From a virus, in the IMG/VR virus record IMGVR_UViG_3300032163_000003, positions 32,001-96,000 of that record: 64,000 nt of DNA; one strand, 5' to 3'. A program made the position numbers and the translations under genes. How positions within the stretch are numbered: the stretch's first letter is position 1; every line of letters begins with the position of its first letter. Shown piece after piece: positions 10,136-59,977 of the stretch. The notes beneath the pieces were generated by a model. The model saw only the letters and a list, made by a program, of their open reading frames with translations. It was not told the origin of the DNA and searched no databases.

Positions 10136-11008
10136 TTACTTTCCTTCTACAAATTTTCTTATTTTATTTTCTACTTTTTCCATATCTTTTAGCTCATTTT
10201 CCCAAATTACTAAAGTCTTATACCCAAACTTTGCAAATATTTTCTTTCTTTCTTCTGGATCTTCTCCTTGATGATAATAATTTCCAAAATGTTCAATCAG
10301 TAACTTCTTACCATTGATACAAGTAAAGTCAGGATTTTTACCATTAATTAAGAAACTAAAATCTCCTGTATATTTCCATTCGTTGGGGTAAAACTTATTT
10401 AGAACATTCAAAATTTTAACTTCACATTTGTTTGGTCTAAGGTCTCGTGCTTCTTTTTGTTTTTGTTGATATTCTGGATCTTTCCAGTTTTCTAGTTGTT
10501 TTTCTGCCATTCTTTTAACACCTTTATTATTCTCTTTAGTTCTTCCCTTCTTTTTTTCTGCTCCTTTTCTACGTCCTTCTTCAGTTACAAAACTAGCTGC
10601 ATAAGTTGCTCCACCACTTTTCATTCGTTTCGATCGTTTTTTTATTTGTATTCTTTTACCTTCTTCGGTTACACAACTATTCATATAAGATGCATGACCA
10701 TTTTTCATTCTTATTCTTGTTTGTGATCTTTCCTCTTCTGTTACATCTCGAAAGTTTTTTATACCTTTATTCCACGGGATTTTTCCGAACATATGATTAT
10801 TCTCTCCTGTTATTTTTTCTGCCCCCTTTTTAACTCTCTCATCTGTTTCTTTTGTTAAATCTTTATTCCACGGAATTCTTCCTTTAAGATTTTCGCTATT
10901 TTTCTTTGAGACTTTTGGGCATTTCATAACATTTAAACTACAACACCATTTTTCGTTCTTGAATTGATATTTCGCTTCTTGACCACAACCATAATCACAT
11001 AATTTCAT
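10136..11008 (-). CDS. Putative homing endonuclease: CxYGCG zinc module, NUMOD3-like repeats, Vsr-like nuclease
   Basis: MKLCDYGCGQEAKYQFKN..CC; PWNKG repeats; NPDF...IEHFGNYYH...LVIWE. Confidence 0.75.
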   Translation of the reverse strand: MKLCDYGCGQEAKYQFKNEKWCCSLNVMKCPKVSKKNSENLKGRIPWNKDLTKETDERVKKGAEKITGENNHMFGKIPWNKGIKNFRDVTEEERSQTRIRMKNGHASYMNSCVTEEGKRIQIKKRSKRMKSGGATYAASFVTEEGRRKGAEKKKGRTKENNKGVKRMAEKQLENWKDPEYQQKQKEARDLRPNKCEVKILNVLNKFYPNEWKYTGDFSFLINGKNPDFTCINGKKLLIEHFGNYYHQGEDPEERKKIFAKFGYKTLVIWENELKDMEKVENKIRKFVEGK

Positions 11009-31954: not shown

Positions 31955-32710
31955 TTATTGTTTTGTCAACATAAAGATAATTACTGAATCTATCATAACA
32001 AGATGATTTGTATCCCTTGTAATTTTAATTCTTTCTGCAAACCAGTCAAACAAGTCTTTCTTTGTTTTGATCTTACTTACATCCGCTTTCATTAGTTGTC
32101 TATATAAAATTTGTATTCCTTCAATATCGACGGGTTTTTCCAGTTCCTTCGCAATACGTTCAGGATCTGTGAAAACATATTTAATTCCTTTATCTTTATT
32201 CTTAATCTTTGTTTGAAAATAAGGAATTAATTTACCTTCAATATTGAGGCAGTATGATATAATGAGTCCAGTTTTAATTCGATAAACTTTTAATGTAACT
32301 CCTTGAACTTCAGTCTCCATAATCGTAGTGTAAATACCGTCATTGAAAACATCGAAATACATTGGTTTGCTATCGAGAATTGGAACGTGAGATGCATTCC
32401 TAAATAAGAATAAATCTCTAGTTGTTTCGTTCTTTTCTACTGATACGCAAATTGTATTTCTTGAATTTACTTTGTCAATGACCATTTTTACAGATTTGAC
32501 TCTTGGAGCAATTTCGTTCTTGTACTTCTCAATCCAATCAACAAACGGAACTGTTCGAAGATCATAACCTAATTGTCGAACCTCTTCTTCCATCTTTATT
32601 TGTTCCTCTTTTGGAAGTTCTGGTTCTTTTGGAGTTAGATCTTCTTTTGGTTTAGATTTGTGTTTGATTGATGTGTCTTTAATCAACTCAGATAAATTTT
32701 CTGTCATCAA
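31955..32710 (-). CDS. Hypothetical protein
   Basis: 251-aa ORF with SD GGAGG. Confidence 0.6.
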   Translation of the reverse strand: MMTENLSELIKDTSIKHKSKPKEDLTPKEPELPKEEQIKMEEEVRQLGYDLRTVPFVDWIEKYKNEIAPRVKSVKMVIDKVNSRNTICVSVEKNETTRDLFLFRNASHVPILDSKPMYFDVFNDGIYTTIMETEVQGVTLKVYRIKTGLIISYCLNIEGKLIPYFQTKIKNKDKGIKYVFTDPERIAKELEKPVDIEGIQILYRQLMKADVSKIKTKKDLFDWFAERIKITRDTNHLVMIDSVIIFMLTKQ

Positions 32711-35563: not shown

Positions 35564-36277
35564 TTAACTCCTCATTAAAATTTCTATATCTTTTTTTAGT
35601 TGTTCTAACGACGGGACTATATCCCGATTTTTTAGGCCTCCATATCTTATAAATTTCCATCCTTGCTCTTCACATCTTTTCTGTCTTTCTATATCTTTTT
35701 TGGGGTCTCCCAATGGACCTTCATGATAATACCACCCATCATACTCAACTACAATTTTATGTTCAAGAATCACAGTATCTAAACTATAATTTAAAAATGG
35801 ATAATTGATAATTATAGTTAGGTTAGGAAATAATAATTCAACGTTCTTACAAATTGTAGATTGTGGAATAGAAGGATTTTTAATAAAACTAAGAGCATGT
35901 GAAGCTCCACCATTTTTCATCCGATGTCTTAGATTTTCTTTTCTTTTTTGGTTGATTCTCCAAGATTTTATTTGACTATCTATACATCTGTTCCTTACCT
36001 CAAGATCTTTCCAAGACTTCTTATGTGATTTTGATTGTTTTTCTTTTACATCCAGTTTATTTTGAATTTTTCTTTGTATTTTAGACATTTTTCTTTTCAT
36101 TTTTGGAGTATTAAGAAACTTCTTTCTGATTTTAGATAACTTATCTTTTACTTTATTCAAAGATTTTGAATTCTTTTTCCTTAAAACTGGACAAGAATTT
36201 TTACTCTCGCTGCAGCACCACTTACCATTCCCAAACTGTTTTATTGCTTCTTGACCACAACCATAATTACATAACAC
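35564..36277 (-). CDS. Putative homing endonuclease: CxYGCG module plus Vsr-like nuclease
   Basis: MLCNYGCGQEA..WCCS; YSLD..VEYDGWYYH..GWKFIRY. Confidence 0.75.
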   Translation of the reverse strand: MLCNYGCGQEAIKQFGNGKWCCSESKNSCPVLRKKNSKSLNKVKDKLSKIRKKFLNTPKMKRKMSKIQRKIQNKLDVKEKQSKSHKKSWKDLEVRNRCIDSQIKSWRINQKRKENLRHRMKNGGASHALSFIKNPSIPQSTICKNVELLFPNLTIIINYPFLNYSLDTVILEHKIVVEYDGWYYHEGPLGDPKKDIERQKRCEEQGWKFIRYGGLKNRDIVPSLEQLKKDIEILMRS

Positions 36278-36611: not shown

Positions 36612-37361
36612 TTAGTTTTCTCCTTTTGTTTGGTCCATCCCACAGACATTTTCTTTATCCTCTAGCAACTTTTTAATATCTTCTTTTACTTGATCTAGAG
36701 TTGGAAATTTCTGAAAAATATTGTATCTTAAGAACTTCCATCCCTCTTCTTCAATTTCTTGTTGTCTTCTCTTATCGTATTCTTTTCGATCTTCTTTGTA
36801 AAAATGATACCAACCATCAAATTCTAAAATAATTCCTAAACTAGAATCAGCTATATCTACAACATAATTTCTTTTTCCTTTTCCTCTATAAATAGGAAAT
36901 TTATGAATTGGTCGTGGAAGAAGTGTACAAGTCATATAGAAAAGTTCGTTTTCTGGTTTAGAATCATCTGAAATACAAGAACACATATAGACCGCTTGCC
37001 AATCCTTCATTCGTTTTGATTGTCTCTTCCTGCTTTCTTTCGTTACGAAACTAGCTGTGTAACTCGCTCCTCCATTTTTCATATATTCTGATTGAATTCT
37101 ACATTCCTCGTGAGTTTCTTTAGTTCTACCAGTTATTTTTTCTGCTTGAATTCTTCTTCCTTCATGGTTCTCTTTTGTTCTTCCTATAAGTTTTTCTGCT
37201 TGTTTCTTTCGTCCTTCGTTATTTTCTTTCGTTCTTCCTCTTTTTGGGTCTCCTGTTCTTTTCTTTATTACTGGACAAGAATTCTGACTCTCACTACAAC
37301 ATCGTTTGCCATTCTTTAACGTATGCTTCCCTTCTTGTCCACAACCATATTCACAAAGCAT
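36612..37361 (-). CDS. Putative homing endonuclease: CxYGCG module, GRTKEN repeats, Vsr-like nuclease
   Basis: Three 18-aa GRTKE repeats; VVDIA..LEFDGWYHF. Confidence 0.75.
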   Translation of the reverse strand: MLCEYGCGQEGKHTLKNGKRCCSESQNSCPVIKKRTGDPKRGRTKENNEGRKKQAEKLIGRTKENHEGRRIQAEKITGRTKETHEECRIQSEYMKNGGASYTASFVTKESRKRQSKRMKDWQAVYMCSCISDDSKPENELFYMTCTLLPRPIHKFPIYRGKGKRNYVVDIADSSLGIILEFDGWYHFYKEDRKEYDKRRQQEIEEEGWKFLRYNIFQKFPTLDQVKEDIKKLLEDKENVCGMDQTKGEN

Positions 37362-40173: not shown

Positions 40174-40251
40174 TGGTAGCCCATGCAGGACTCGAACCTG
40201 CGACCTAGGACTTAGAAGGACCTTGCTCTATTCCACCTGAGCTAATGGGTC
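40174..40251 (-). tRNA. tRNA-Arg(TCT)
   Basis: Loop CTTCTAA; CCA; single mismatches in acceptor and anticodon stems. Confidence 0.85.
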
Positions 40252-40932
40252 TTTTCTATGAGTCTTTAAGTTAAACTTATAGTTCTTAGTTAAAGAATGA
40301 TGATTTGGACACAAAAGTTCTAAATTTTCTTCTATTGAACTAAATCTATTTCCATCTATATGATGTAGTTCTAGAGGAATTAGATTAGTAAATTGATTTA
40401 CTTCTGACCATCCACATACAGAACATTTATTGTTGTATTTTTTTAGGATGTACTTCCTTATAAGAGTAGAAGCACCACCTGATGTATTTCCAGAAATTTT
40501 TCCGTCTTTCCATTTACTTATATATTCTTTATATTTATACTCACTATGACAAAAACCATTGCAAAACTGTTTCATCCACTTAATAACTTTCCCGCAATTT
40601 TTACAGTAGCTTATTCTAAAAAATTTTGGTATTCTATTTTTGTTGTTATAGAAAGCAGCACATGTACTATTACAAAATTTTTTATTGTGGTTTATTTCCT
40701 TGTTACACCATAGGCAATATTCTATCGTACATGTTTTTTTATGAAGAGGAAAAGCCATTGATCCAACTGTCTTATTACACACCGGACATAAAACTCTAGG
40801 TTTGGATTTAAGCGAGATTGAACTTCGATTTCTTTTTCCTGGACATTTATTAATACTATTACTACAACATCGTTTCTTTCCAATTTTAAACTTTGATTCT
40901 TGACCACATCCGTATTCGCATAACATATACAT
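40228..40932 (-). CDS. HNH homing endonuclease with CxYGCG module; ends inside tRNA-Arg
   Basis: MLCEYGCGQE; CSVCG...LELHHIDGN...NLELLCPNHH. Confidence 0.85.
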   Translation of the reverse strand: MYMLCEYGCGQESKFKIGKKRCCSNSINKCPGKRNRSSISLKSKPRVLCPVCNKTVGSMAFPLHKKTCTIEYCLWCNKEINHNKKFCNSTCAAFYNNKNRIPKFFRISYCKNCGKVIKWMKQFCNGFCHSEYKYKEYISKWKDGKISGNTSGGASTLIRKYILKKYNNKCSVCGWSEVNQFTNLIPLELHHIDGNRFSSIEENLELLCPNHHSLTKNYKFNLKTHRKDPLAQVE

Positions 40933-43862: not shown

Positions 43863-43887
43863 TTCTTTCCCATTAGACGACCGGTCA
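43863..43887 (-). pseudogene. Orphan 5' fragment of a tRNA-Gln-like gene
   Basis: TGACCGG TC GTCT AATGGGAA AGA resembles the 5' end and D arm of the downstream tRNA-Gln. Confidence 0.45.
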
Positions 43888-44388
43888 GTGAGCGGTTAAG
43901 AAGAATTCTGCAAACTCTTCCTTACCAAATCCGTCAAGAAGTTCCCAAAGTTCTGTTCTTGTAATAGAATTTTCTTTATCGGTTGCCACAGAACCATATG
44001 AAGATTTTCCAGTAGAAAGATCTAAAAGAGTCATCTCTTTTGGATCAGTAGAGATCAACATAACTTCCTGCTTTCTATCAAAGAACTTTGTTTTGAGGAT
44101 ATATGATTCTTCTCCAAGTTCTTTAATAAACTTTTGTGTTGTCAACCATTTAAAGTTTTCACTCCAGTCATTCCATTCATAATCCTCTAAGAAACTTACA
44201 ACATTTTTAAGAGGAATATCTTTGTCTGTTCCAAATTCTATTGCAAAGTCAGTAAGAAGACCCTTTATGTCGTCACATAAATCATGAACTTTAATAAGAT
44301 TTTGAAATGTAATGGGTTTTATTTTTACAAATTCTTGACTTCCGTGGGCGTATCTTTCACCTTGAATTTCCTTCTTCGCTTTTGCCAT
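43885..44388 (-). CDS. Hypothetical protein
   Basis: 167-aa ORF with SD AGGAG. Confidence 0.6.
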   Translation of the reverse strand: MAKAKKEIQGERYAHGSQEFVKIKPITFQNLIKVHDLCDDIKGLLTDFAIEFGTDKDIPLKNVVSFLEDYEWNDWSENFKWLTTQKFIKELGEESYILKTKFFDRKQEVMLISTDPKEMTLLDLSTGKSSYGSVATDKENSITRTELWELLDGFGKEEFAEFFLTAH

Positions 44389-47792: not shown

Positions 47793-47866
47793 TAGCAGTG
47801 GGTGGAGTCGAACCATCTACCTAAGCCTTATCAGGACTTTGCTCTAACCAGTTGAGCTACACTGCT
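47793..47866 (-). tRNA. tRNA-Ile(GAT)
   Basis: AAGTC-CTGATAA-GGCTT. Confidence 0.9.
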
Positions 47867-48399
47867 AATTTCCTTTCTTCTTTCGCCATCCTGTCATACA
47901 AAACTATATAAACTGCTGCTGACAAGTTCGTACAATGGATACTAGGAATAACTATAAATCTATGACAATGCCTCAAGAAAGTTTGCGGTATTCCCCCATC
48001 TTCAGGACCAAAAACATACACAGCATTTTTTGGATGCTCAAAGTGTACTAGATTTTCAGAATTTTCTCTTACTTCGACTGCTACAGGAACAATACCTTTT
48101 GGAAAACGATTGAAGGGATATTCGTCGCTAATGATTTGTATTTCCTTATAATCCTTCATTCTCTCTTCTCTTGGTAATCGATACTTTCCATTTTCTGTTT
48201 CTAAGTTTAATCTGTTCCCAGTAAAAATCACTGCCTTCGCACCAAAACAAGAACAAGCTCTTACTACATTTCCCAAGTTATGAATGTATTTTGGATTGTA
48301 GAGAATAATAGAGGGGGCTATATCTTCTTCAAATAGTTCACCTTCTTTTTTAACTTTAATCAAATCGCCGAACGTAAAATCTTGTAACGTTGCTTTCAT
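47857..48399 (-). CDS. SpoU/TrmH-family (SPOUT) RNA 2'-O-methyltransferase
   Basis: NLGNVVRAC, YVFGPEDGG, IPS...NLSAAVYIVLYD. Confidence 0.88.
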   Translation of the reverse strand: MKATLQDFTFGDLIKVKKEGELFEEDIAPSIILYNPKYIHNLGNVVRACSCFGAKAVIFTGNRLNLETENGKYRLPREERMKDYKEIQIISDEYPFNRFPKGIVPVAVEVRENSENLVHFEHPKNAVYVFGPEDGGIPQTFLRHCHRFIVIPSIHCTNLSAAVYIVLYDRMAKEERKLAV

Positions 48400-48410
48400 T
48401 ATTCACCCCA

Positions 48411-48842
48411 CTATTTATTAACAAGTATTATCGTTCCGCCATAGTCAATACAAACTTTATTTTCGTATATGAAAGAATCATCTTCATCTTTACTATTTCC
48501 AACAACATAATGATTCAGAACTTTTCTAAGATTATAATCTTCATCGGGTTTGTGAATCATCTTTTTTAACCAGTCTTTCTTTATAACTGAACTAAGTTTA
48601 TTAATTTCATGATCAACTTCGTCAGTTATAATTTCTATAAATTTTTTTCCTTTATCTATTAAGATATATTCGAATGACATAGTAGAAGATGATCGATCAG
48701 TACTACCAGAAATCCACATTACTTCTGGATCTTTTAAACATATTTCATTAATTAAGGTATCTTCTTTGCAATCTTTTGATGAGCAACATGGTTTGACTAA
48801 ACATGTTTTGCAAACTAAAGTCTTTTTCACTTTTTTCTCCAT
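48411..48842 (-). CDS. CxxC(I/L)(I/V)xxxC family protein
   Basis: VCKTCLVKPCCSSKDC. Confidence 0.6.
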   Translation of the reverse strand: MEKKVKKTLVCKTCLVKPCCSSKDCKEDTLINEICLKDPEVMWISGSTDRSSSTMSFEYILIDKGKKFIEIITDEVDHEINKLSSVIKKDWLKKMIHKPDEDYNLRKVLNHYVVGNSKDEDDSFIYENKVCIDYGGTIILVNK

Positions 48843-48848
48843 TCTTGT

Positions 48849-48924
48849 TGGAGCGGGTAACGAGATTTGAACTCGTAAGCAACCAGTTTGGAAAACTGGC
48901 GTTCTACCATTGAACTATACCCGC
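48849..48924 (-). tRNA. tRNA-Gly(TCC)
   Basis: CCAGT-TTTCCAA-ACTGG; U73; CCA. Confidence 0.9.
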
Positions 48925-48935
48925 TTTAGTTTGTC

Positions 48936-49022
48936 TGGCGGAGGGTGCAAGACTCGAACTCGCAAGTCTGTTACAACGGTGGGGTTCAGACCCACTCCCT
49001 TACCAATTAGGGTTAACCCTCC
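48936..49022 (-). tRNA. tRNA-Ser(TGA), C33 variant
   Basis: GTGGG-TCTGAAC-CCCAC; long variable region; G73; CCA. Confidence 0.8.
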
Positions 49023-49729
49023 TCATATAATTTAATAAAATCTTTTCCATATGTGTCTATTACATACGAAAATATATTTTTCATTTCTTCTTTCATTAAT
49101 ACTACTAATTTTCCTGGAAATTGTTTAATCTTTTCGTTAGTTTGCTCACATAGAAATGATTTTACTTCTATATAGGTATCATCAGGATATTTATAGTCTG
49201 GAACATATTTATAAACTTTTCCGTTCCAAAAGTAATCAAACTTTTTAGAATTTCTTTTAAACTGAATTTTGTTATCTAAATGATAGATAACAAAAGCCAA
49301 TTCCCAAGATGAGTCACACCAGAATCCTTTGTACCAGCCTTTCTTCCCGATTCCAGATCCTTGTCTGTATCCTCCATTATTAGATATTAAAGCTTTCTCT
49401 TTTATTTTTCTTCTTCGCTCTTTCTCTTTCTCTTCAGTTTTGGCCATTCCAGTAAGATGTAAACTAGAGATTGACTTAGAAAGTTTCTTTTTAACTTCTA
49501 TACTTCTTTCTTTTCCAAATATCTCCTCGTAATTTTTTCCTTTAAGTGGAGACAATTTTCCTAACCATGGTTTTGGATGCCCATTTTTCCACTTTGGACA
49601 TTTTCCTTTTTTCTTTAAACTATCAAGTCTTCGTTTTTCTGGACATTTATTCATACTATTAGAACAGCACCACTTTCCGTTCTTAAACTGATATTTTGCT
49701 TCTTTTTTACAACCATATAAACATAACAT
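49013..49729 (-). CDS. Putative homing endonuclease: CxYGC module plus PD-(D/E)XK nuclease; ends inside tRNA-Ser
   Basis: MLCLYGCKKEAKYQFKNGKWCCS; DSSWE...YVPDY...YIEVK. Confidence 0.8.
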   Translation of the reverse strand: MLCLYGCKKEAKYQFKNGKWCCSNSMNKCPEKRRLDSLKKKGKCPKWKNGHPKPWLGKLSPLKGKNYEEIFGKERSIEVKKKLSKSISSLHLTGMAKTEEKEKERRRKIKEKALISNNGGYRQGSGIGKKGWYKGFWCDSSWELAFVIYHLDNKIQFKRNSKKFDYFWNGKVYKYVPDYKYPDDTYIEVKSFLCEQTNEKIKQFPGKLVVLMKEEMKNIFSYVIDTYGKDFIKLYEEG

Positions 49730-49730
49730 A

Positions 49731-49768
49731 TTTTGATCTCCTATTTATTTGTTCTAAGAAGATCAAAA
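49731..49768 (-). promoter_or_regulatory. RBS-sequestering hairpin with candidate late promoter in its loop
   Basis: TTTTGATCTTCT pairs with AGGAGATCAAAA; loop TAGAACAAATAAAT. Confidence 0.6.
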
Positions 49769-49801
49769 CTTGCGCCATAAACCAGACTCGGCCAACTCTC
49801 C
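49763..49801 (-). pseudogene. Orphan 5' half of tRNA-Ser(TGA)
   Basis: GGAGAGT TG GCCG AGTCTGGTTTA TGGC G CAAGT TT TGA, with no matching 3' half. Confidence 0.75.
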
Positions 49802-49809
49802 GTTTTCTT

Positions 49810-50127
49810 TTAAGAACTTATAGCTCCTGGTTGTCCTTCTACTGCAGGACCTACAGGTTCATATAAATACCAACCAATTAAAATTATCGGAACAACTACT
49901 GTTTCAAAAAGAATTACACTCCAGATTATGTTTCCAACAATAACTCTGTACTCGACTTTTGGATTTCTTTTGTCTATATTAAAAAGACCGTATTGCTGAA
50001 ACTTATATGTTTTTACAATCTCTTCTTCTCCTTCTTTAACCTTAACCGAAATATTCCTATCAAATCCACAAGAAATCGTAGCAAGTAAAAACACTACCAT
50101 TATTAAACAACAAATAATCTTTTTCAT
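49810..50127 (-). CDS. Putative lipoprotein/membrane protein
   Basis: Signal peptide with TISCG lipobox-like motif; C-terminal hydrophobic segment. Confidence 0.65.
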   Translation of the reverse strand: MKKIICCLIMVVFLLATISCGFDRNISVKVKEGEEEIVKTYKFQQYGLFNIDKRNPKVEYRVIVGNIIWSVILFETVVVPIILIGWYLYEPVGPAVEGQPGAISS

Positions 50128-50464
50128 AATTCTCCTTTCAGATCTTCATCTAAAATTTTGCTTCTTGTTTTATATCCATACTCGCAAAGCATATTTATTC
50201 TACTTTCCATACTTTAACTGAGAAGTTATCGTGAGGATAATTGTGCCATTCTCTCCAGTCGTTTGAACTAAGATTTTTGATCATTCTCTCATACATTTCA
50301 GAAGAAGAATGTTCTTCTTTACAAAAATCAACCATTCTTTTCCATTCAGAAACTAAACGATCTCTCTCTTCTAGAATAGCTTTTTCAGCTTTTTCTTGCG
50401 ACGACAAAATTCTTACTACGTGTCCACTCTCACAGTCATATTCTTGAATAATCCAAACTTCCAT

Positions 50465-50896
50465 TTAGTTTCTCCTCAGTTCTTCTCTTACTTTCATCAA
50501 AATTTTTCCTAAATTATTCTCTCCTTTTCCTGTTCTTAAGTCTATTCCCCAATATGTATCATTCCAATAGTTTCCTTCTTGGAGAATAGAATCTCCAGTG
50601 TTTAGAAGCATCTGTTTTAGAACTAGGTTGTTCATAAACTTCTTACGAACTAATTCGTACATAATCCCATACTTTATCTCGTTCCATCCGTTTCTTAGTT
50701 TTACTTTCTTTCCTAGTCTTTTTGTGTCACCTGGAGTTTCACAAACTAGAATTTGTTGTCTATAATTCTTGTCAAGAGATTTTGCTGCTTGATATGCGTG
50801 TTCCAAAGTTTTATATACAACCTCGTCATAGCTTACCAAAGAAGGATAGAAGTTTGAAAGGAACCTAAACTCTTTCTGAAACTCTTTTACTATCAT
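50465..50896 (-). CDS. NADAR-family protein
   Basis: FLSNFY, TLEHAYQAAK, LLNTG, DTYWG, GENNLGKILMKVR. Confidence 0.92.
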   Translation of the reverse strand: MIVKEFQKEFRFLSNFYPSLVSYDEVVYKTLEHAYQAAKSLDKNYRQQILVCETPGDTKRLGKKVKLRNGWNEIKYGIMYELVRKKFMNNLVLKQMLLNTGDSILQEGNYWNDTYWGIDLRTGKGENNLGKILMKVREELRRN

Positions 50897-51867
50897 TATT
50901 TCTCCTTTAACAAATACTTATTCGAAAGCCTCTTCAACCACTTTCTTCCCACATAGTTGTCTAACTGTTCCTTCTCAGACCTAATCACAATGCCTTCTCG
51001 AATGTGACAGCCGTTCCCAAGAACAGTTAATCCATCTGCTAGTTCTTCAATTACTTTTAATGAAAAAGGTCCTCTATATAGAACCGGAGGTGTCTTGAAA
51101 TCTAGTTCCTTACAAATAGACTCTACCTCATCCCAGTCAAGAAACTTTCCATTTACCTGAATATCGAAAACTATGAAGTTCTGGTTAGTAAGACCATATG
51201 TAAGATTCTGTACTGACTTTCCGTAAATCTCTGCGTATGGGATTGCGTCTTCCGAACGCCATTTATTTAGAACTTTGTCTTCTAATCCATACTTTGTAGC
51301 TATTAAAGAATATATGCTTCCACCCGGATGTTTCTTGATATTGAAATGACTTCCAACGTAAAAAACATTTTCGACAACACCAAATCTAAAGTTGGTTCCA
51401 TGAATCTTTTCTGTTATGAAAACCTCTTCTCCAACCTTGAAAACGTCTGGAAAGTTTTGAATTCTTTCAATGTCTGTCTTGTATGAAAATCCAGCTACGT
51501 TAGGAGCATTATCTCCACCAAAACTAACTGGATCTGGTGGTTCGTATTTTTTAACTCCTAATTCTTCTGTGACATCTTGTCCTTCTATCCAACCTTCCTT
51601 AGATGGAACTAGAAGACCCTGACTAAGAATCTTTCTTAGTTTAATAGTTTTGATTCTAAAGTGTCTATCTCTCAAAAACTCCCATTCAGAAGTTTCAGGA
51701 AGGATAGAATCAATTGGTATATAAGCGCCCAAACTTTTTCCTTCGAAGTCAGTTGTTTTTACTACACACTGCCATTGTGTTTCACCTACAGTTGCTATAG
51801 ATAGGGTATCAGCGTTTGGATGCTTTTCAAGTTTGAAAGAAACAACTTTAACTGAAAATTGACTCAT
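50896..51867 (-). CDS. RNA ligase, DRB0094 family
   Basis: HPNADTL N-terminus, LSQGL, TEKIHGTN, YAEIYG, FDI, REGIVIR. Confidence 0.88.
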   Translation of the reverse strand: MSQFSVKVVSFKLEKHPNADTLSIATVGETQWQCVVKTTDFEGKSLGAYIPIDSILPETSEWEFLRDRHFRIKTIKLRKILSQGLLVPSKEGWIEGQDVTEELGVKKYEPPDPVSFGGDNAPNVAGFSYKTDIERIQNFPDVFKVGEEVFITEKIHGTNFRFGVVENVFYVGSHFNIKKHPGGSIYSLIATKYGLEDKVLNKWRSEDAIPYAEIYGKSVQNLTYGLTNQNFIVFDIQVNGKFLDWDEVESICKELDFKTPPVLYRGPFSLKVIEELADGLTVLGNGCHIREGIVIRSEKEQLDNYVGRKWLKRLSNKYLLKEK

Positions 51868-52366
51868 TGATTTTTTCCTCCTTTTTACTTCCCGAATCTA
51901 GTCTCATTCTGTGACATTTAGCGCAAGTAGTTATCCAATTTGATTGTTCCATCAAAGTATAATCTTTTGCGATAGATGTACAATGCATTGATAAAGACTG
52001 TTGTGTGTCTTGAATTTCTTCTTCATTTATTTTTCCACATAATTCACAGTTTTGTTTCCCAAACAACTCTTTAGCTTTGTCATGCTAGTAAAGACTACAT
52101 CCTCCTTTCCATGACGAATGACTTTCTCCATATTTTCCAAATAAATAGTTATTTTTTCCAGAATTAGATAGATTTTTTCTTCCAAGTTTTAATTCTCTAA
52201 TCCTTCTTCTAACTTCTAATCTTTTAGTTGGGTTATTTTCCCCAGAAAAAGCTTTCCTTCTTTCTGAACATTTTTTGTAATGATCTGAACAGCATAACCT
52301 TCCATTCTTAAATTGATATTTTGCTTCTTGTCCACAACCATAATCACACAATCTCATTAAAGTCAC
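51848..52366 (-). pseudogene. CxYGCG-module HNH-like endonuclease interrupted by one in-frame TAG
   Basis: ORFs 52085..52366 and 51848..52066 are in the same frame: GCSLY*HDKAKELFGKQNCELCG...MHC...NWITTCAKCH. Confidence 0.7.
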
Positions 52367-53083: not shown

Positions 53084-53158
53084 TGGAGCCACCAGAAGGA
53101 TTCGAACCCTCGAAAGTTGATTACAGGTCAACCATTTTTCCATCTAAATTATAGTGGC
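53084..53158 (-). tRNA. tRNA-Thr(TGT), C33 variant with weak D arm
   Basis: GTTGA-CCTGTAA-TCAAC; GCCACTA/TGGTGGC acceptor; CCA. Confidence 0.78.
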
Positions 53159-53753
53159 TAAACTTTTCTAAGAATTCTTTTTCATATTTTTCTACTTTTT
53201 CAATTATTACTTCTTTAAACTTACAATGTATATACTTATGATGAGTTGGACAAAGAGGAATCAAATTTTCCGGATTTATATTTTGTTTATTTTCGTCTAA
53301 GTGATGAACATCAACAATAAGATTCTCTTCACATATTATGCATTTTTTTTCATGAAATTGAAAGCAAACTTCTCTATACTTATACTTTCCATTATCCTCT
53401 TCATAGTTTTTGTTGAAAAACCTCCTGGCGCATCTATTAGAACATGTTTCAGTTAAAGTATAATATTTTATAGGTTTTTCACAAATTGGGCAAAGTTTTA
53501 AATTTTTAGGGTTTAAGTAGCATGTTTCAGAATGTTTACTAATATTGGATGAAGTTTTTTCTTTTTTACAAAATTCACACGGAACTTTTTTATATTGTCC
53601 ATTGCTTTTAGTCCCATTCTTATACATTTGAAACTGACGTTCTGAATTCTTTTTTCTTAAAGATGGACATCGTTGATAAATTTCATTACAACACATCTTT
53701 CCACTTTTTAGTTGATAAATCCCTTCTCTTCCACACCCATATTGACATAACAT
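53121..53753 (-). CDS. HNH homing endonuclease with CxYGCG module; stop codon in the tRNA-Thr anticodon loop
   Basis: MLCQYGCGRE; CIIC...VDVHHLD...NLIPLCPTHH. Confidence 0.85.
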   Translation of the reverse strand: MLCQYGCGREGIYQLKSGKMCCNEIYQRCPSLRKKNSERQFQMYKNGTKSNGQYKKVPCEFCKKEKTSSNISKHSETCYLNPKNLKLCPICEKPIKYYTLTETCSNRCARRFFNKNYEEDNGKYKYREVCFQFHEKKCIICEENLIVDVHHLDENKQNINPENLIPLCPTHHKYIHCKFKEVIIEKVEKYEKEFLEKFSHYNLDGKMVDL

Positions 53754-53779
53754 GGTGTATTCCTCTCTATTTAGATCTT

Positions 53780-53791
53780 TATTATATGTTC
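53780..53791 (-). promoter_or_regulatory. Candidate late promoter upstream of HEG
   Basis: GAACATATAATA. Confidence 0.45.
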
Positions 53792-53832
53792 TAACTTAAG
53801 GAGAAATTGGTAGAGTGCCAGATCTTCAACTC

Positions 53833-53869
53833 TACCAATCAACCGTTCCTATCATTAGACAATTCGGGC
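53833..53869 (-). pseudogene. Orphan 5' half of a tRNA-Thr(GGT)-like gene
   Basis: GCCCGAA TT GTCT AATGATAGGAACG GTTGA TT GGT A; same GTTGA stem as the downstream tRNA-Thr. Confidence 0.55.
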
Positions 53870-54125
53870 TTTTATCTTTTAATTCTTTCAGAAGCATCCA
53901 ACACTTCTGACAATTCTTTTCCGATTAAGTCACTCGAACTTTTATCTTTTACTTCTGCTAGAGGTTTTGCGCACCAAGGACAAAACTTAAAAACTTTTCC
54001 TGTGTACTTTGTTCCCCAAGAATGAATAGTTGGAGACACCATTACTTGAGCTGATATTATCTGGGGCATTCCAATTTTAAAATCTTTACAATCACATTCC
54101 ATACCCACAGTTTTCTCCTTTTAGA

Positions 54126-58700: not shown

Positions 58701-58842
58701 ACTCTTTAATTACAAAACCAGAATCTTCTACTGGTCTTAGCATTTCTCGAATCTTGTCTTTTAGCTCGAGATATTCCTGTTCTCTAATTTTGAAAATATC
58801 TAAACTATTTTTTATTACAAAATTTGGATTTACTATTTTCAA
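55768..58842 (-). CDS. rpoB: Phage multisubunit RNA polymerase beta-like subunit
   Basis: GRICPVDTPDRENCG, MASSQMRQA, GLNYEDS, GDKIGNRHGNKGVV, SRMNLGQ, GGQRCGEME. Confidence 0.93.
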   Translation of the reverse strand: MKIVNPNFVIKNSLDIFKIREQEYLELKDKIREMLRPVEDSGFVIKEFEIKDLRPSTDELEKTLKKSIVILLGKGNHDFDLSMAIPKLVDGNYIKVSGKKKVPIFQLFDIPIVTRGADIKLRTNVGTIMVSHRKEPDSTFVDYVYVTILGKKIPFAILLFAYYGYEEIEKRFELDKIEAPIITDSSSIADKLLYDLKVYHESSVGYSKEDFITDVGKNYSTIDPLTRGEKIIYSLDLLPRIDLMSSQFFHKDSVIEELLYAISNPVDDKDYRNKRIRCFEYVVLSKIAKNLFNLCLACFKSSSPKFNVNSKQIIQDCNVSNIIQFDFSINPIDELSKLTRISLVGPDGFTKENVPVHLRDLWPSMFGRICPVDTPDRENCGVLQNLLVNTKLDPNLRFSEELEEKSTISIPVSMVPFSEHDDQTRLQMASSQMRQAIMLEKPELPLVESGCERLYTDKTQFIKVARKDGQVIFLNDEFLVLLYDDKDYDTFDISIRNTHVENIDYMTSYVKLGERVKAGQILAESNFCENGQIKFGRNYLTAVMPYHGLNYEDSIIISERVQEQMFTSVHFVDLSFEIPPNKVLLDLSVDRKKYTPLPILDREDNKNERVKLAAIQENIPYAVMKEIPDGPVNFSSIFEEETKHSFNKPAYVFHLKVYPNNWNRSIPEYNKWVEQIKEKQLEEEKKIEETLLEHLPPEDVKKFLKENNLNMFSKTEKGRKYKIKGEEVKGVYVEMYGIYMRKIEVGDKIGNRHGNKGVVKILPKEKMPRMEDGKYVDICISPLSVISRMNLGQIFELHLGMSLVDLKRQLVTMLTEEKTQEELKKYILDYIKIIDNTEDNWYYKQFEEQLNKTTVDETFIYKLSVVEPPFESTTAEMVLKALEYTNTPSEYKMFDSISNRWVLNPIAVGYMYFFKMIHIAETKLAGRGIGVYNKRTLQPLGGRKNRGGQRCGEMETACLIAHGSTYNLHEFLTTKSDCTDLKNDYIRSVVESEFIRKPETLDKVPESVKLFDKYLQVIGLDSKD

Positions 58843-59977
58843 TAGTTGAGTCTCCTTTCTGGAGAAGAGTTGTTAGTTCTAATTTACTACTAACAACTCT
58901 TTTTTGTTTTACAATATTTTTAAAGAAACTTTCTAATTCTACTGATTTTATTTCTTTAATTAACTTTTTAAGAGAAATTGAGCAATTCTCTCGCTTACTT
59001 TTATTAGATAATTCTGGTATTACTTCTAAATTCTTCCAGTGACTTATTATTTTAGGGTGTACCTTATTTTTGAATCCCTGAAATATTGAGAATTTGTGGT
59101 CCAAGTTGTTGGTTTTACTTCGTAAACTAGAATGTGGAATTTTATCTTTATGTAGTTTGAAAGAGATATAAGTTTCTTTTTCTACATCTTGTTTATATCT
59201 TGCGTAGATAGATAGTATTTCTGGATCTTTCTTTCTATAGTACTGAGGACAGGTTTTCTTACAAATATTTGAGCAATACATAAATCCATGTCCATATCGT
59301 TTATCTTTTACTTGTAAGGTTTTAGCTCTCCAGTAAATTTGATATGATGCTGGTTCAAACCAAGTTCTACACACTTTACATCTAACTAAGATCTTTCCGT
59401 TTTCTTCTTTAATCTCCTCAAATTCAGAAAACCATGGATATCGTTTTGAGAACCTTTTGAATGTAAGTTTTGCTTGTTTCTTTCCCTTCATTCTAATGCT
59501 AATAGAAAGTTTAATCTCATCAGTATGTGTTTTATTAAACATTGGATGATTAAATCCAACCATTTTTCCTTTAACTCCAGCACCAATCTTTAATTTAATT
59601 ATTGGGCATGAATTCTGAATTTCTGAACAACACAATTTTTCATTTTTTAGTTTGTATTTGGCAACATTTCCACAACCATAAAAACATAATATATTTTCTG
59701 TATTTTCGAGCTTGCAGCTTTTGTGTCGATTCCCTGTTTTCTTTCCTTCATGTTTTTCTCGATTTTTCTTTTTTGATTCTTTAGTGTGGTGCTTTCCATA
59801 CATTGAATTCTTAGACCCTGGATTTCCGTATAACTTTCTAACAGATGAACATTTTCTGTAACTTTCACTGCAGCAAAATTTCTCTTGTAGTCCAACTTTA
59901 AACTTTGCCAACTGTCCACACCCATATCCACAGTAAATAGTTCCATCATTTTCAATTTTATAACTAATTTCCTTCAT
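58805..59977 (-). CDS. Putative homing endonuclease between RNAP genes (two CxYGCG modules, NUMOD3, HNH-like C-terminus)
   Basis: YCGYGCGQ and LCFYGCGN; MYGKHHT; LDHKFSIFQGF...NLEVIP..N. Confidence 0.75.
   Translation of the reverse strand: MKEISYKIENDGTIYCGYGCGQLAKFKVGLQEKFCCSESYRKCSSVRKLYGNPGSKNSMYGKHHTKESKKKNREKHEGKKTGNRHKSCKLENTENILCFYGCGNVAKYKLKNEKLCCSEIQNSCPIIKLKIGAGVKGKMVGFNHPMFNKTHTDEIKLSISIRMKGKKQAKLTFKRFSKRYPWFSEFEEIKEENGKILVRCKVCRTWFEPASYQIYWRAKTLQVKDKRYGHGFMYCSNICKKTCPQYYRKKDPEILSIYARYKQDVEKETYISFKLHKDKIPHSSLRSKTNNLDHKFSIFQGFKNKVHPKIISHWKNLEVIPELSNKSKRENCSISLKKLIKEIKSVELESFFKNIVKQKRVVSSKLELTTLLQKGDSTIENSKSKFCNKK

Follow-up and report, generated by a model that had tools for sequence, protein, structure and literature searches.

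Homing endonucleases are thought to persist in essential genes either by residing in self-splicing introns and inteins or by settling between genes. Here we describe a phage locus that probably works differently: a cassette in which a free-standing endonuclease gene lies between the broken 5' half of a serine transfer RNA (tRNA) gene and a complete tRNA-Ser(UGA) gene. The cassette was found in a stretch of 64,000 nucleotides (nt), positions 32,001 to 96,000 of the virus record IMGVR_UViG_3300032163_000003, which we call the window; the record itself is a 110-kb IMG/VR entry from a sediment metagenome, about 35% complete and with 34.6% G+C.

Several described systems share parts of this design. 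The structure of the intron endonuclease I-Ssp6803I is of the PD-(D/E)XK type, and in phage Aeh1 the mobE gene splits nrdA. I-Ssp6803I is encoded by a group I intron in the tRNA-fMet gene of Synechocystis (Bonocora and Shub 2001, as cited in PMC3984707). SegB (PMC2330249) is a free-standing GIY-YIG homing endonuclease of the T4 tRNA cluster that recognizes a T-arm motif common to many tRNAs and carries neighboring tRNA genes with it. In fungal mitochondria, mobile open reading frames (mORFs) displace the end of a gene with a foreign copy that they carry, and the native end goes unexpressed, as in atp6 of Allomyces and atp6, atp9, cox2, and nad3 of Glomus (PMC3630166). Lastly, "fractured genes" contain free-standing endonuclease genes between the halves of split-intein genes (PMC2677866).

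The locus described here resembles each of these in part. Like SegB, it is a free-standing endonuclease gene in a phage tRNA cluster, with putative recognition of tRNA genes and proposed spread in mixed infections together with a neighboring tRNA; SegB, however, is a GIY-YIG enzyme and ours a PD-(D/E)XK enzyme, and for SegB neither a split tRNA gene nor a matched replacement tRNA is described. The present family, in contrast, is tied to one amino-acid class, breaks the gene in the anticodon loop, and keeps a remnant of the resident gene. I-Ssp6803I, too, is a PD-(D/E)XK homing enzyme whose element sits in the anticodon loop of a tRNA gene, and it targets the anticodon region, as the nuclease of the window probably does; there the harm is undone by splicing, whereas the cassette has neither ribozyme nor 3' exon and carries an entire spare tRNA gene. 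The mORFs are the closest in logic, although in design only: an intron-less invasion by an endonuclease ORF, a divergent replacement, and a native remnant. They concern protein-coding genes, use LAGLIDADG or GIY-YIG enzymes, and replace only the C-terminal part, often in frame; here the target is a phage tRNA gene, the enzyme is of the PD-(D/E)XK type, the parts come in mirrored order (remnant, nuclease, replacement), with an entire gene as the replacement. Fractured genes and mobE likewise have a free-standing endonuclease gene that breaks a host gene in two, but their products rejoin or cooperate as proteins, while the broken tRNA gene is replaced and not rescued. None of the compared systems unites a free-standing PD-(D/E)XK enzyme with both a split tRNA gene and an entire tRNA to replace it, and no published description of such a cassette was found in the full-text literature searched.

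All 22 tRNA genes of the window lie on the minus strand. Read 5' to 3' on that strand from position 49801, the cassette region consists of the tRNA-Ser 5' half, a hairpin spacer, the nuclease ORF, and the complete tRNA-Ser(UGA), which we call the cargo (Table 1); a tRNA-Gly (48849-48924) starts 11 nt past it, and a 105-aa ORF (49810-50127) lies on the far side of the half. An integrase-type element inserted in a tRNA gene was considered and rejected—the nuclease is the sole ORF between half and cargo, there is neither an integrase gene nor a pair of att repeats, and half and cargo are alike in just 26 of 43 columns.

The orphan half is 39 nt long and comprises the acceptor strand, a canonical tRNA-Ser D arm, the 5' strand of the anticodon stem, and the loop letters T-T-TGA, at which point the tRNA sequence ends. 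Over its first 30 nt it shows no difference from an intact tRNA-Ser(GCU) on an unrelated GC-rich phage contig (locus L012). We built hidden Markov models (HMMs) of tRNA 5' halves for each amino acid, with training tRNAs taken only from other loci and without this genome; the serine model matched the half over its full length (1-37 of 37, E 0.013 in the 110-kb genome, both strands). Genome-wide, these models gave two orphan matches: the serine half and a short glutamine stub. The stub (43865-43887, minus strand, 23 nt) covers the first 22 positions of the tRNA-Gln model with an E of 0.049; it lies 30 nt upstream of a complete tRNA-Gln(UUG), at the end of an ORF at 43885-44388. No 3' partner of the serine half is present in the 11 nt between the cargo and tRNA-Gly; downstream, nothing pairs with its anticodon stem, and the best acceptor pairing (6 of 7) belongs to the cargo.

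The half and the start codon of the nuclease are separated by 33 nt, and folding places a 13-bp hairpin across the junction (-13.6 kcal/mol, z -5.1, with none of 200 shuffles equally stable). Its 5' arm is formed by the last bases of the half, TGA included, and its 3' arm contains the Shine-Dalgarno sequence AGGAG; by analogy with T4 endonuclease genes, the hairpin may limit translation of the nuclease. The loop consists of TAGAACAAATAAAT, a putative promoter. The window contains nine matches to a degenerate form of this pattern, where 3.3 would be expected; three of these lie directly 5' of endonuclease start codons (40932, 49729, and 53753), and the motif also precedes both cassettes of locus L128, the nearest full-length relative. 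Similar hairpins are found in some relatives (L149, L129, L187) and are absent from most; with a family median z of -0.2, a hairpin that hides the ribosome-binding site was rejected as a family trait, being strong only in the window and a few relatives. The T4 late-promoter motif TATAAATA is exact before the nuclease ORF in 12 of 127 family loci, compared to 1% of background windows. It was rejected as a late promoter for the cassette in the window, where it is not enriched overall and matches at 7 of 8 positions at the cassette ORF.

The nuclease ORF has its own start codon and Shine-Dalgarno sequence and is flanked on both sides by tRNA sequence. The encoded protein consists of a Cys-rich module (residues 1-45), a linker modeled with low confidence, and a PD-(D/E)XK domain (residues ~118-238), for which AlphaFold2 gives a predicted local distance difference test score of 92-98. 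The catalytic residues D139, E143, D178, E188, and K190 are intact; these, along with S140, S141, and P177, are invariant in an alignment with 26 relatives and make up the E...PD...ExK signature. The structural neighbors of the model, at modest Z scores, are all PD-(D/E)XK proteins—TnsA (6.1), Bax1 (5.7), and the homing endonuclease I-Bth0305I (5.4), followed by VRR-NUC and Vsr. Foldseek against the PDB returned nothing at E 0.001 or better, and its weak rows were all PD-(D/E)XK nucleases. A profile of the family matches structures of T7 endonuclease I (E 2.2e-5 over ~50 residues), structure comparison with VIA gives the model a Z of only 3.6 to 2pfj, and some relatives bear precomputed PF05367 (Phage_endo_I) matches; the nuclease of the window alone had zero Pfam matches at E up to 1 and only weak "endonuclease" matches in PHROGs. 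No sequence relation to I-Ssp6803I was detected, the family profile giving no match to it at E up to 10.

Residues 110-238 of the nuclease have at least 407 relatives at E 1e-5 or better. These relatives bear other N-terminal modules, some of them NUMOD3 or zinc fingers, and conversely the Cys module recurs in eight other ORFs of the genome, where it is joined to HNH, DUF559 (Vsr-like), or NUMOD3-bearing bodies; such swapping of N-terminal modules is typical of homing endonucleases. The tRNA region of the window is dense in modular endonuclease genes of this kind. Relatives of the nuclease in Lak phages and in LR756508 (L001 and L003) contain in-frame TAG or TGA codons, respectively, which is in keeping with the recoded stops of those huge phages.

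The cargo was called by ARAGORN and scores 41.7 bits with the Rfam tRNA model (gathering score 29). Acceptor, D, and anticodon stems are present in its fold, and the tRNA has G73, a long variable arm, an encoded CCA, and an unusual D arm; its anticodon loop reads T-C-TGA-A-C, with C33 where U33 is usual. It is the sole tRNA-Ser(UGA) of the 110-kb record. The last 10 nt of the nuclease ORF are also nt 1-10 of the tRNA, and the stop codon TAA coincides with tRNA positions 8-10. Because the stop lies inside the tRNA, processing by RNase P would detach it from the messenger RNA, and tRNA maturation and nuclease translation should then compete on a single transcript. An earlier note on this DNA, made from its letters alone, had described a well-formed tRNA-Ser half ending right after TGA, a hairpin with a promoter motif, a Cys module joined to a PD-(D/E)XK nuclease, and a complete, divergent tRNA-Ser overlapping the nuclease stop; all four descriptions hold, with the stem borne out by folding and the promoter role of the loop a putative one.

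The arrangement recurs in many other phages. We collected 160 nuclease-domain loci from IMG/VR and Joint Genome Institute (JGI) metagenomes, which together with earlier loci gave 134 non-redundant ones; 125 have at least 120 nt 3' of the nuclease gene and were scored for a downstream tRNA. In 51 of these, a tRNA called by ARAGORN starts no more than 50 nt from the conserved C-terminal LYE, and 36 of the 51 are tRNA-Ser (25 UGA, 7 GGA, 2 GCU, and 2 CGA), against a serine background of 98 among 565 tRNAs in the same loci (binomial p 8e-17). At least seven more loci contain a non-canonical tRNA-Ser(UGA) at that place, visible to nhmmer only. Matches of the tRNA-Ser 5'-half HMM outside complete tRNAs were then counted as orphan halves: 851 kb of sequence yielded 23, every one on the strand of the nuclease, and 16 of them end 22-80 nt 5' of its start codon (p 6e-28). 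Most end directly after ..TTGA and continue into T-rich cassette sequence, with the same junction in at least 12 loci.

Five loci retain the other end of the broken gene as well. A 3' remnant, in which the T arm and the acceptor strand are preserved along with half of the variable arm, directly follows the complete tRNA in L013, L081, L140, and L192, and in L077 a remnant lies 310 nt further on. In all five the acceptor strand of the remnant forms 7 of 7 pairs with the upstream half of its own locus. Half and matching remnant thus enclose nuclease and tRNA, which indicates that a single resident gene was split by the two inserted together; since about nt 37-47 of the resident tRNA are gone where both remnants are kept, splicing is excluded.

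Half and complete tRNA also agree in amino acid. Using amino-acid-specific HMMs, the 14 loci that could be scored matched without exception: 11 for serine, phenylalanine in L092 (E 2e-6), glutamine in L108/L109, and glutamate, weakly, in L103. The phenylalanine and glutamine halves too break after the letters TGA, so the junction tracks a loop sequence shared by Ser, Phe, and Gln tRNAs and not a fixed tRNA position. The cargo tRNAs, moreover, are less canonical in their 5' parts than the orphan halves, which look no less canonical than functional tRNA genes. With an HMM built from tRNA-Ser genes unlinked to a nuclease, 19 of 35 cargo tRNAs (including that of the window) gave no match, whereas all 13 orphan halves scored (Mann-Whitney p 3.7e-5, with the caveats that a similar model had served to find the orphans and that the HMM was trained on the non-cassette set). 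A generic HMM, built from the 5' halves of every type I tRNA, lacked the sensitivity to be of use. The amino-acid agreement had been set out in the earlier note as what a wider survey could refute, and both it and the divergence of the replacement bear that note out; its reading of a tRNA gene truncated at the anticodon is supported, with a refinement—the insertion lies in the anticodon loop, as the halves and the five nested remnants attest, but it is tied to the loop letters TGA and not to position 36.

Taken together, these data support intron-less homing with a compensating cargo, much as the earlier note had it, and we consider it likely that the cassette is a homing-endonuclease element whose targets are tRNA-Ser(UGA) genes and which supplies a replacement for the gene it invades. 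It would consist of the regulatory spacer, the PD-(D/E)XK gene, and the linked tRNA-Ser(UGA), about 0.83 kb in all, seated in a resident tRNA-Ser(UGA) gene. In a mixed infection, cassette-free phages with an intact canonical tRNA-Ser(UGA) gene would have it cut by the nuclease in the region of the anticodon loop, just after ..TTGA, and repair of the break by recombination with the cassette-bearing genome would copy the cassette in. The front half of the resident gene, and in some phages its tail, would be left behind as dead flanking remnants, which may act as homology arms for the next invasion, since they match the conserved target to either side of the break, and could thus admit the cassette to phages whose flanks are unrelated; such a role would explain both the canonical look of the halves, equal to that of working genes, and the constancy of the junction. 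The cargo would make good the lost tRNA gene, and its differing D arm and anticodon stem should spare it from cutting. In the window, expression of the nuclease is probably kept low by the hairpin that hides its ribosome-binding site and by removal of the ORF stop by RNase P.

Other origins could account for parts of this picture. The nuclease might be a classical intron-less homing enzyme that sits beside the phage's own mutation-resistant tRNA-Ser, the half being a scrap of the donor or a neighbor, or a leftover of imprecise repair, instead of a split target. The frequent abutment or overlap of nuclease ORF and tRNA gene would fit this, as would the absence of a half from most loci and the way in which similarity between the window and L128 stops exactly at the tRNA start, the linked tRNAs being unlike; enclosure of nuclease and tRNA by half and matching remnant, however, is what joint insertion predicts, the halves vary by locus and each pairs with the remnant of its own locus, and the identical junctions are against it, which makes this origin unlikely. 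We think it more improbable still that the nuclease gene once lay between tandem tRNA-Ser genes, as it does in L002, and that the upstream gene later lost its 3' half by random deletion with no targeting of the anticodon. Loci L002, L133, L067, L089, L152, L175, and L194 do have one complete tRNA-Ser about 50 nt 5' of the nuclease gene and another downstream, but the ends of random deletions would scatter, whereas most halves stop after TGA whether they are Ser, Phe, or Gln, and the matching 3' remnants lie past the downstream tRNA and not before the nuclease gene.

The phage itself could be the beneficiary, with a nuclease and an odd tRNA that, for example, reshuffle or amplify tRNA genes resistant to host anticodon nucleases, and the half a mere by-product. 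One report has SegB of T4 and T6 amplifying anti-defense tRNA loci (PMC13096335), and another proposes that anticodon-loop variants of phage tRNAs evade host nucleases (PMC10264068); C33 in the cargo and the nearby genes for an RNA ligase, a NADAR protein, and a SpoU methylase would suit such a function. Patchy spread, swapped N-terminal modules, and gene debris are nonetheless the usual marks of selfish endonucleases, and a benefit to the phage would add to homing and not exclude it; as an explanation in its own right we hold it to be very improbable. To a degenerate or unusual intron, or a split tRNA whose 5' exon is the half, joined in cis or in trans with the nuclease ORF in the intervening sequence, we give almost no credence. 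Bacterial group I introns in tRNA genes, one of which encodes I-Ssp6803I, classically sit in the anticodon loop, and the tRNA-Ser of L116 has an insertion in the same loop. Yet Rfam at E up to 10 finds two tRNAs and chance matches at 48500-50200 and no ribozyme, the 33 non-coding nt before the ORF, with none after it before the ORF enters the next tRNA, leave no room for a group I core, nothing downstream pairs with the anticodon stem of the half or fully with its acceptor strand, and loci with both remnants lack nt 37-47. A group I intron and a split tRNA were therefore rejected, in agreement with the earlier note, which had seen no pairing of the half with the downstream anticodon stem.

Several observations weigh against homing with a compensating cargo and must be considered alongside the evidence above. 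The 3' remnant of the split tRNA is absent from the window. A recognizable half is present in only ~13% of the surveyed loci, in a search that favors well-preserved halves, and in about 10 loci the nuclease gene is instead preceded by a complete tRNA-Ser, which for some of them fits a tandem origin. The ORFs of the window and L128 share 66% DNA identity; their similarity spans spacer and ORF and ends at the tRNA, the two cargo tRNAs being unlike. Over long times, therefore, the cargo is not stably co-inherited, its place being taken by other tRNAs or its sequence evolving fast. Finally, the searches described below found no cassette-free relative of this phage, which leaves mobility at this locus putative.

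The searches for such a relative were varied. Protein searches of viral contigs with both flanking ORFs returned distant, non-syntenic loci only; a homolog of the upstream ORF, 74% identical (P0122), is on a 3.2-kb JGI contig. An exact-pattern search for the intact version of the half found only L012 in viral contigs and nothing in genome contigs, a search for the intact allele of L081 found none, and the contigs of two sequencing runs, the probable source run and one with a small share, contained no piece spanning the cassette stretch and no joints. Nor were near-identical cassettes found in different contexts: similarity between loci is just 65-76% at the DNA level and is limited to the nuclease domain, and recent transfer of a cassette was rejected on that ground. 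What was found is a related case. In L015 and L017, a divergent tRNA-Ser(UGA) and an HNH gene (598 nt, L015:1894-2491) stand exactly in place of the canonical tRNA-Ser(UGA) of L016 (90 nt, 2401-2490), between flanks that are 95-96% identical. This is the presence and absence of a sister design, in which the tRNA is upstream of the HNH gene—the mirror of the order in the window.

Some of the surveyed loci merit separate description. The 2.7-kb L128 contains two cassettes that share the spacer motif and the N-terminal module (560-700 and 2632-2738), the first with a decayed tRNA-Ser half and the second with a well-preserved one. Over 2.2 kb, L108 and L109 show 99.55% identity, and nearly all their differences fall in a 9-nt block (1399-1407) at the junction of half and cassette; in one contig this block re-forms the anticodon stem of the tRNA-Gln half, and in the other it equals the cassette start of L081. 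The tRNA-Ser of L116 (885-1160) is interrupted in the anticodon loop, at the cassette break site, by an insertion of ~183 nt with zero matches to Rfam intron or ribozyme families. In L055 (1356-1422), a weak match to a hepatitis delta virus-like ribozyme (33 bits, gathering score 44) lies ~80 nt 5' of the nuclease ORF.

Table 1. Features of the cassette and related ORFs, in window coordinates.
Feature	Position	Strand	Evidence
Orphan 5' half of a canonical tRNA-Ser(UGA), tRNA positions 1-36	49763..49801	minus	Sequence, L012 identity, out-of-sample HMM
13-bp hairpin, arms 49769-49757 / 49742-49730	49730..49769	minus	RNA fold
Motif TAGAACAAATAAAT in hairpin loop, candidate promoter or regulatory element	49743..49756	minus	Pattern count
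Shine-Dalgarno AGGAG of the endonuclease ORF	49742-49738	minus	In hairpin 3' arm
Free-standing endonuclease ORF, 238 aa, ATG start	49013..49729	minus	ORF, alignment, model
Complete non-canonical tRNA-Ser(UGA) with encoded CCA, "cargo"	48936..49022	minus	ARAGORN, Rfam, fold
Cys-module ORFs	35564-36277, 36612-37361, 40228-40932, 52085-52366, 53121-53753, 58805-59977, ~10856-11002	minus	Shared N-terminal module

Adjoining the cassette on the minus strand (47857-48399 and 50465-51867) are genes for a SpoU-type RNA methylase, a NADAR-domain protein, and an RNA ligase (PF09414 with the oligonucleotide-binding fold PHA02142), which suggests a neighborhood of tRNA repair and modification. Other endonuclease genes in the window also run into tRNAs: the HNH ORFs at 40228-40932 and 53121-53753 extend 24 and 38 nt, respectively, into tRNA-Arg(UCU) (40174-40251) and tRNA-Thr(UGU) (53084-53158). 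The acceptor stem of the former contains a G1-U72 pair and an A2-C71 mismatch. The loop of the latter reads C-C-TGT-A-A, and it shares with the tRNA-Ser(UGA) at 48936-49022, likewise linked to an endonuclease, a C33 in place of the near-universal U33. By eye, the 5' half of a tRNA-Thr(GGU) followed by a perfect 10-bp inverted repeat is present at ~53830-53870 (minus strand), 5' of the HNH ORF; neither the general nor the Thr-specific 5'-half HMM supports this half (E above 5). Half, HNH gene, and tRNA-Thr (53084-53870) would make a second triplet, plausible by eye.

A bolder extension can be put forward tentatively, as something possible that we do not expect to be right in full. The remnants would serve as portable homology arms and allow homing into any phage with a canonical tRNA-Ser(UGA), whatever its flanks; the spare gene would take the place of splicing; and the cargo, with its C33 and altered D and anticodon arms, may resist host anticodon nucleases, in which case cassettes would spread defense-proof tRNAs among unrelated large phages.

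For homing endonucleases in general, the cassette would represent a third solution to life in essential genes, one suited to RNA genes and apparently in wide use—the gene is broken, and a resistant spare comes with the element. If this is true, it would account for much of what is seen in the tRNA arrays of large phages (debris, odd tRNAs, and rapid turnover), and it would define a large nuclease family that is probably specific for tRNA genes. Sensitive and resistant targets would then occur as natural pairs, of use in studies of recognition by PD-(D/E)XK homing enzymes. It would also be a warning for annotators, since many cargo tRNAs escape tRNA finders, which also leave half genes unreported.

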